This document shows positions 4,190-4,612 of a DNA stretch of 11,924 nt, in pieces. The position numbers and the translations under genes were made by a program. The notes below the pieces were generated by a model. It was given only the letters and a program-made list of their open reading frames with translations. It searched no databases and was not told where the DNA came from. The number at the start of each line of letters is the position of its first letter. Position 1 is the first letter of the stretch. This stretch comes from a virus (lineage: Duplodnaviria > Heunggongvirae > Uroviricota > Caudoviricetes): the IMG/VR virus record IMGVR_UViG_2526164647_000012, one strand, 5' to 3'.

Positions 4190-4612
4190 TCAGTTGGCTG
4201 GTCGTTTAACCGACATAGTTAACCCATTAATCTGGTTGCCGGATGCTGGTGGATTTTCGCGTTTTAATTGTTCATAAAAGTGCACAGCTTTAACCAGTTC
4301 TTCTGATGTAACCGGGACTGGTGGGGCAGTGAATAAGGCCTGAATTTCATAGTTCGGCCTGTCGTTACAATCCTCTTTTTTCGGTACATATTTCCAGTCA
4401 CCAACCCACAACTCCCCCTGAGAGTCCATAACACCTTTTTTCACGTAGCGATATCGCCACGCTATCGGCTCTGCTTCCAGCGATGCCCGTGCAATTTTGA
4501 ATAACTCGCCCTCTACTCGCGCCATCCCTGAATTGGGGTGGCATTTCGTAATCGCTATTTTTAATTTGGCTTCTTCGATTAATTGTTCTTTTGTTAATTC
4601 AGTCATTTTCAT
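4190..4612 (-). CDS. Hypothetical protein, 140 aa, no family recognised
   Basis: Clean 423-nt ORF with SD-like AGGGCGG upstream of ATG 4612; normal composition (no low-complexity); divergent from the integrase gene. Confidence 0.55.
   Translation of the reverse strand: MKMTELTKEQLIEEAKLKIAITKCHPNSGMARVEGELFKIARASLEAEPIAWRYRYVKKGVMDSQGELWVGDWKYVPKKEDCNDRPNYEIQALFTAPPVPVTSEELVKAVHFYEQLKRENPPASGNQINGLTMSVKRPAN

Follow-up and report, generated by a model that had tools for sequence, protein, structure and literature searches.

Among the described systems closest to the gene considered here are the Ea22 proteins of lambda and Stx phages, which are mosaic and pro-lysogenic and form a tetramer through their N-terminal and coiled-coil region (PMC7093339, PMC10834534). 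Ea22-type proteins are thought to bias phage development. Like Ea22, the family to which the gene belongs comprises early, non-essential, highly mosaic lambdoid accessory proteins in which a helical N-terminal part is combined with a C-terminal domain that can be swapped, and the genes of both are often adjacent. Furthermore, a sister protein of the family, P0025, carries the N-terminal Ead_Ea22 motif, matching the corresponding HMM with 22.6 bits over its first 26 residues only (gathering score, 27 bits). In contrast to Ea22, the protein studied here lacks a long coiled coil. Its assignment to the Ead_Ea22 family (PF13935) was considered and rejected: there was no match at E≤10, and hhalign comparison of its profile with the neighboring Ead/Ea22-like proteins gave a probability of 0.14%. 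Proteins with a DUF551 domain (PF04448), such as YfdS and Ea22 V2, have gene arrays and linker motifs (..PLYTAPP.. and ..NACRAAMLQ..) in common with the family, whereas the Pfam scan detected no DUF551 domain in the ORF. A further point of reference is provided by the lambda nin genes (ninA to ninI, between P and Q), which are dispensable; by analogy, the gene studied here is presumed to be dispensable too. In the undeleted prophage it has the equivalent map position and pR transcription, but no sequence relationship to the named nin genes was detected in Pfam or NCBIfam. The catalogued family PHROG 660 shares with the ORF the N-terminal hairpin, the beta core, the helix, and the nin- or ea-region position in lambdoid prophages; the ORF differs in lacking 30 internal residues, owing to a deletion, and the 35-residue C-terminal tail, owing to a frameshift.

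The ORF was analyzed within a window of 11,924 nucleotides, the whole stretch of DNA taken from the Caudoviricetes virus record IMGVR_UViG_2526164647_000012, and the features relevant to its interpretation are compiled in Table 1. With a probability of roughly 0.7, what this window contains is not selected integrase-proximal cargo but a remnant, truncated and promoterless, of an early accessory gene of the PHROG 660 family.

Table 1. Features of the prophage segment around the ORF (positions refer to the window)
Feature	Position	Strand	Remarks
hokD/mok/sok type I toxin-antitoxin locus	3384..3709	-	Rfam sok at 3534-3709; HOK_GEF product
Relic C-terminal tail, TTSQLKKRKPDYRLPDKAISYLARNGLISMGNVLR*, out of frame	4098..4205	-	Severed from the ORF by the TGGT deletion
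ORF, 140 aa	4190..4612	-	ATG start, from the ORF list; PHROG 660 member, truncated
Native 5' sequence, last 9 nt, including GGCGG	4613..4621	-	Identity to the undeleted prophage ends at 4621
Deletion joint, 12 nt, GGTAATGCTGCC (minus strand, GGCAGCATTACC)	4622..4633	.	Equals the outermost 12 nt of the IS1 terminal inverted repeat
DUF4224 (xis-like) gene, 5'-truncated, about 21 codons missing	4631..4773	+	Borders the 9,352-bp deletion on the int side
Prophage tyrosine integrase, split in two ORFs	4773..5812	+	1-nt deletion in the A-run at about 5426-5431
tRNA-Ser (CGA), serU, prophage attachment site	5840..5929	-	ARAGORN/Rfam tRNA calls

The ORF has a GC content of 44.8%, as compared to 48.7% for the whole window. 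Its product has 140 aa when counted from the first ATG and 138 aa when counted from the ATG at 4606 (Met3). The Shine-Dalgarno-like GGCGG is located 8 nt 5' of this third codon and 2 nt 5' of the first ATG, the 138-aa form is the PGAP annotation in other genomes, and the relatives start with MTELTKE or MTTITKE. Given this spacing, the annotations, and the N-termini of the relatives, the true start is probably at 4606, resulting in a product of 138 aa. A stop-free run of at least 140 codons arose in 31 of 2000 shuffles (1.6%) of the local 601-nt region, so that the length of the ORF alone is weak evidence, and the curated Pfam and NCBIfam families do not match it, both of which would be compatible with a chance open frame or a mis-called ORF without a protein product. 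This reading can be set aside with near certainty, as it is already refuted by the conservation pattern: the reading frame is kept in hundreds of homologs that form a PHROG family, dN/dS across family members is 0.11-0.17 at a dS of 0.5-0.7 over the core (aa 47-122), and a folded core is confidently predicted. The reality of the ORF is thus settled by homology and selection (PHROG 660, 568 homologs, and the core dN/dS), and sequence comparison confirms that it is a genuine coding sequence whose protein is under purifying selection across the family. The preliminary description of a well-formed ORF therefore agrees with the ORF list, homology, and selection alike.

The ORF product matched the PHROG 660 profile HMM with E=6.3e-47 (161 bits), its residues 1-139 being aligned to positions 1-133 of 193. 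Profile positions 134-193, which correspond to the C-terminal tail module, are absent from the ORF, and the match hence does not cover the full length of the profile; the full-length relative P0014 (201 aa) spans positions 3-193. A search of 5.8 billion proteins retrieved 568 close homologs from E. coli, Shigella, and E. albertii, all of which are named hypothetical or prophage protein, and a complete run of HMMER over 1.84 billion cluster representatives matched 351 clusters at 50% identity. The exact 138-aa protein was found on at least 999 contigs of Shigella and E. coli (3,333 blocks of the collection). RefSeq and UniRef contain it from assemblies numbering in the thousands, and it is labelled "MULTISPECIES: hypothetical protein [Enterobacteriaceae]". 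The RefSeq records for proteins of the PHROG 660 type are WP_005069274.1 and WP_001400256.1, both "hypothetical protein". At the nucleotide level, at least part of a 601-nt query (the ORF with about 90 nt per side) was matched in 2,597 of 5,426 complete E. coli genomes. The ORF had been proposed as the best candidate in the window for something undescribed, which does not hold, since the identical protein is already deposited and the family is catalogued as PHROG 660; the ORF is already known as a sequence and is an ordinary member of a catalogued prophage gene family. The accompanying remark that no family could be recognized stands insofar as no characterized family claims the ORF. Scans against Pfam (E≤10) and NCBIfam gave no match, the PADLOC-DB defense-protein models yielded 0 families at E≤10, and the PDB search returned only noise with the single sequence (E>0.5) and nothing with a 44-sequence profile. 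Within the literature on Ea22 and Ea22-like proteins, no functional work on the PHROG 660 family was found. Rfam identified only sok and tRNAs over the window, and no RNA element beneath the ORF.

Window positions 1-4621 share 99.6% identity with a prophage of E. coli FDAARGOS_944 (L001, L024), which is the same prophage in undeleted form at the same serU/mtfA site. In FDAARGOS_944, the gene encodes WP_005069274.1; it belongs to the rightward early operon, where it occupies the equivalent of the nin region, at a distance of about 9.4 kb from int. The genes for a cro-like protein, YdaT, a replication protein, DUF977, DUF4406, and an Ead/Ea22-like protein precede it in this order, and it is followed by hokD, a hypothetical gene, DUF968, RusA, and Q. 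The same nin position just 5' of hokD was also found in three further prophages (L015, L022, and L023). In mEp460, a P22-like prophage, Stx2a phages, and phage-like contigs of about 90 kb, homologs are contained in the leftward early ea/exo-xis array, usually near Ead_Ea22 and DUF551 genes (L003, L004, and L021). Like lambdoid nin and other early accessory genes, the homologs are therefore placed between the replication genes and Q or in the ea array, and they are co-directional with their operon in all contexts examined; none of these contexts contained an independently transcribed homolog beside an integrase. A native nin-region gene just 5' of hokD would be transcribed from pR only in lytic growth or upon induction, and in intact phages antiterminated transcripts from pR or pL would give rise to the protein at an early stage of lytic growth.

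The hokD/mok/sok locus is the conserved 3' neighbor of the gene in this prophage type, and the position of the ORF between the hok locus and int, as initially described, is borne out by the Rfam sok match, the HOK_GEF product, and the tyrosine integrase. The conserved adjacency in L001, L015, L022, and L023 gave rise to the idea of a functional link to hokD, which was rejected because the homologs of P22-like prophages, Stx phages, and the phage-like contigs of about 90 kb have other neighbors. In Stx2a-converting phages, the gene for a PHROG 660 relative, whose beta cassette differs, is located directly 3' of the Ea22-like gene; in phage Stx2_6804 (L004, 3266-5210), it is immediately followed by an IS600-like transposase gene that is near-identical to that of the window. 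Contigs of about 62-89 kb (L017-L020), which are possibly phage-plasmids, harbor a 148-aa family member in a long array of small early genes that also includes PAPS reductase, metallophosphatase, DUF968, Ead_Ea22, and DUF551 genes. A few kb away from this array are a PhD/Fic toxin-antitoxin pair and a block of opposite orientation that contains a Tad2-like gene and a dUTPase gene.

Identity to the serU int module begins at position 4631, 21 codons into the DUF4224 gene, and the last 3 nt of the 12-nt joint overlap this homology. The stretch that is missing from the window amounts to 9,352 bp in FDAARGOS_944. It contains exonuclease, dicB, ydfABC, relBE, repressor and cro-like genes, replication genes, and DUF977, DUF4406, and Ead/Ea22-like genes, and comparison with the undeleted relative thus agrees with the earlier view that the early region of the prophage is gone. 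Given that the native site is about 9.4 kb from int and that an IS1 end is found at the joint, the divergent arrangement of ORF and int is, as judged from the alignment of the deleted and undeleted forms, the scar of one IS1-associated deletion in a decaying Shigella prophage. Among species representatives, the joint is shared by Shigella flexneri SFBU1023 and a single "E. coli" genome of 4.4 Mb, and no record with at least 80% of the joint-spanning stretch 3300-6100 was found in the 5,426 complete E. coli genomes. The Shigella genomes L009-L013 possess a second copy of the gene, in which a complete IS1 ending ...TTGGCAGCATTACC is located 24 nt 5' of the ATG. This second segment, comprising the ORF, hok, and the hypothetical gene (about 5900-7700 in L009-L013), differs by one synonymous change and is part of another decayed prophage with further IS elements around it.

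The gene itself has also decayed, as judged against relatives of 171-201 aa. Alignment with the full-length P0056 (171 aa) revealed two lesions. One is a 90-nt in-frame deletion between AATCCACCAG/AACCCACCAG repeats that removes the ETGAWKDAVDWVLKEAC... module (30 codons), whereas the other is a 4-nt deletion (TGGT) that shifts the frame and creates the new ending ...VKRPAN*. The relic tail downstream shares 70% identity with the C-terminal 33 aa of P0056 (E=2e-14), corresponding to a loss of 35 codons. Other alleles of the gene are annotated as frameshifted pseudogenes, and the database proteins P0130 and P0195 are translations of frameshifted copies. Nineteen complete E. coli genomes also carry the 138-aa allele, in nin regions that look intact; the sole comparison within this allele showed 1 synonymous and 3 non-synonymous differences, which are too few to judge selection. 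A crude consensus scan of about 1.1 kb 5' of the ORF identified no sigma-70-like promoter on the minus strand, the number of sites being at chance level. Since a recognizable promoter is lacking, the window copy in Shigella flexneri is most likely a passenger with little or no expression and not selected cargo, although read-through from serU or antisense transcription of int could be a route to its expression.

These data are best explained if the ORF descends from a gene of PHROG 660, a family of mosaic, non-essential early accessory genes in lambdoid phages and related temperate phages of E. coli and Shigella. The loss of 30 internal codons and of the 35-residue tail, the latter through the 4-nt frameshift, came first. 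The IS1-associated deletion of 9,352 bp then removed the entire immunity, replication, and recombination region and joined the gene, with just 9 nt of its own leader, to an oppositely pointing, truncated xis-like gene.

A structural model of the ORF product was generated with AlphaFold2 using a 44-sequence alignment, as a shallow alignment of 21 sequences proved too poor (pLDDT 56). The model has a mean pLDDT of 75.8, with values of about 95 over residues 50-95. It consists of a helical hairpin at aa 8-46 (helices 8-24 and 29-46), a three-stranded beta core at aa 51-93 (strands 51-62, 68-76, and 88-93), a helix at aa 104-119, and a disordered tail at aa 124-140 that results from the frameshift; no enzyme-like fold was found in this model. 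Foldseek comparison to the PDB, including the C-terminal domain of lambda Ea22, gave no significant match (best E=1.1), and the structural neighbors in BFVD are uncharacterized phage proteins, one of which is named Ead/Ea22-like (E=3e-5). The core at about aa 40-122, comprising the end of the hairpin, the three-stranded sheet (WRYRYVKKG..WVGDWKYV..YEIQALF), and the helix, may represent a new small domain that has neither a Pfam model nor a PDB fold. PHROG 660 representatives are strongly mosaic: between the linkers ...ARIALASLEAEPVAW and ...PLYTAPPxP, the beta "cassettes" differ from member to member. Modules that recombine freely are the N-terminal hairpin, the C-terminal helix, the ETGAWKD... 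segment, the tail, and sometimes a DUF551 domain, and in 3 of the 44 relatives the N-terminal and core modules are fused to a C-terminal DUF551 domain.

The gene geometry in the window is what gave rise to the initial proposal that the ORF is an integrase-proximal moron or cargo gene, with a function in defense or anti-defense, that was kept by selection next to int while its neighbors decayed. In some of the phage-like contigs of about 90 kb, moreover, homologs are found within a few kb of the PhD/Fic pair and the Tad2-like gene. However, the latter is encoded on the opposite strand in a separate gene block, and the PADLOC models gave no match. In the undeleted prophage at the same site, about 9.4 kb separate int from the gene, which is a member of the pR operon, so that the proximity to int is not native, and the end of an IS1 is left at the joint. 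Selective retention is likewise at odds with a layout that results from a single IS1-marked deletion and with an ORF that is itself a decayed allele. A context survey of homologs for an association with integrases, which had been suggested as a check, placed those examined in early operons and none of them as an independently transcribed unit beside int. A role as selected integrase-proximal cargo is consequently very unlikely.

A better case, which nevertheless appears unlikely, can be made for a 138-aa protein that is still functional in Shigella and E. coli and is produced from a weak or unrecognized promoter; with its intact hairpin and beta core, it could for example act as a superinfection-exclusion, anti-defense, or host-modulating factor. 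The integrity of these two elements counts against the interpretation as a remnant, as does the fact that Shigella flexneri genomes keep the identical protein in two copies. The core of the family is under purifying selection, the truncated allele is found in the otherwise intact nin regions of the 19 complete E. coli genomes, the identical protein is carried by the at least 999 contigs and, in Shigella, in two genomic contexts, and the 148-aa family members are also devoid of a long tail. On the other hand, Shigella flexneri is clonal, and identity is therefore no proof of selection; in Shigella, moreover, the deletion has separated one copy from the promoter of the operon, and IS1 has done the same to the second copy. 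The allele has neither the ETGAWKDAVDWVLKEAC module nor the tail of its relatives, other alleles are annotated as frameshifted pseudogenes, and PADLOC matches are absent. A truncated, promoterless remnant thus remains the preferred interpretation of the window copy, and the 138-aa protein is probably a non-enzymatic early accessory protein that is likely to be inert in the window.

As to the function of the family, the PHROG 660 protein may tentatively be pictured as a small non-enzymatic adaptor that binds a partner via its beta cassette, a possibility that is more doubtful than probable and that is suggested by the predicted architecture and the gene neighborhood, in analogy to the mosaic Ea22-type proteins. 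The hairpin and the C-terminal helix would frame an exchangeable beta "cassette" between the conserved linkers ...ASLEAEPVAW and ...PLYTAPPxP, by which a partner of host or phage origin would be bound in the early phase of infection. It is rather improbable that the core is an exchangeable target-binding cassette directed against a factor of the host or of a rival phage, serving in lysis-lysogeny control or anti-defense, and that the truncated Shigella allele is still active in this capacity.

The window copy as such matters little, since the exact protein has already been deposited and the copy is a truncated, promoterless remnant. The novelty that remains resides in the uncharacterized family as a whole, for which an intact allele from an inducible phage is a better starting point. 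Among the early genes of E. coli prophages, PHROG 660 and its neighbors of the Ea22 and DUF551 types make up a large, mosaic, and functionally obscure group, and the partner of one PHROG 660-type member, once worked out, would annotate hundreds of genes. Moreover, this locus illustrates that the signal of an "integrase-proximal cargo" can arise from a single IS-mediated deletion in a decaying Shigella prophage, and that the cargo question is settled at once when the locus is compared with its undeleted counterpart in the same attachment site.

Several further features of the window deserve mention. The AT-rich spacer between the 140-aa ORF and hok contains a very hydrophobic 45-aa ORF, MKNALQFLFVAFWLFASCMPIIFTARYMEKIDVLILMFGHINALF, at 3840-3977 on the minus strand, which is preceded by a strong Shine-Dalgarno sequence, AGGGGGAATAATG, and could encode a small membrane protein. 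It has no match in PHROGs, and the spacer is 95-99% conserved in E. coli prophages, where it carries no annotation. Two E. coli relatives and another S. flexneri genome carry an extra A in the A-run of int, and the split of this gene could correspond to a real pseudogene or to a homopolymer sequencing error. Near the 3' end of int (about 5775-5800), a short tandem repeat, ATTCCAAGAAAAT, differs in copy number among genomes. A phage tRNA cluster at 324-633 on the minus strand, 3' of the Q antiterminator gene, comprises Gly-TCC, Thr-TGT, Lys-TTT, and a tRNA with a CAT anticodon, which is assigned to Met by ARAGORN, whereas PGAP annotates the equivalent gene as tRNA-Ile. In the regions 6921-8420 and 8527-11477, a tRNA-Asn precedes what is left of a P4-type integrase, a C-terminal piece of 249 aa (7671-8420), behind which IS911-like and IS600-like elements interrupt the shikimate transporter gene shiA (fragment 9742-10260), a pattern typical of IS-driven decay in Shigella.
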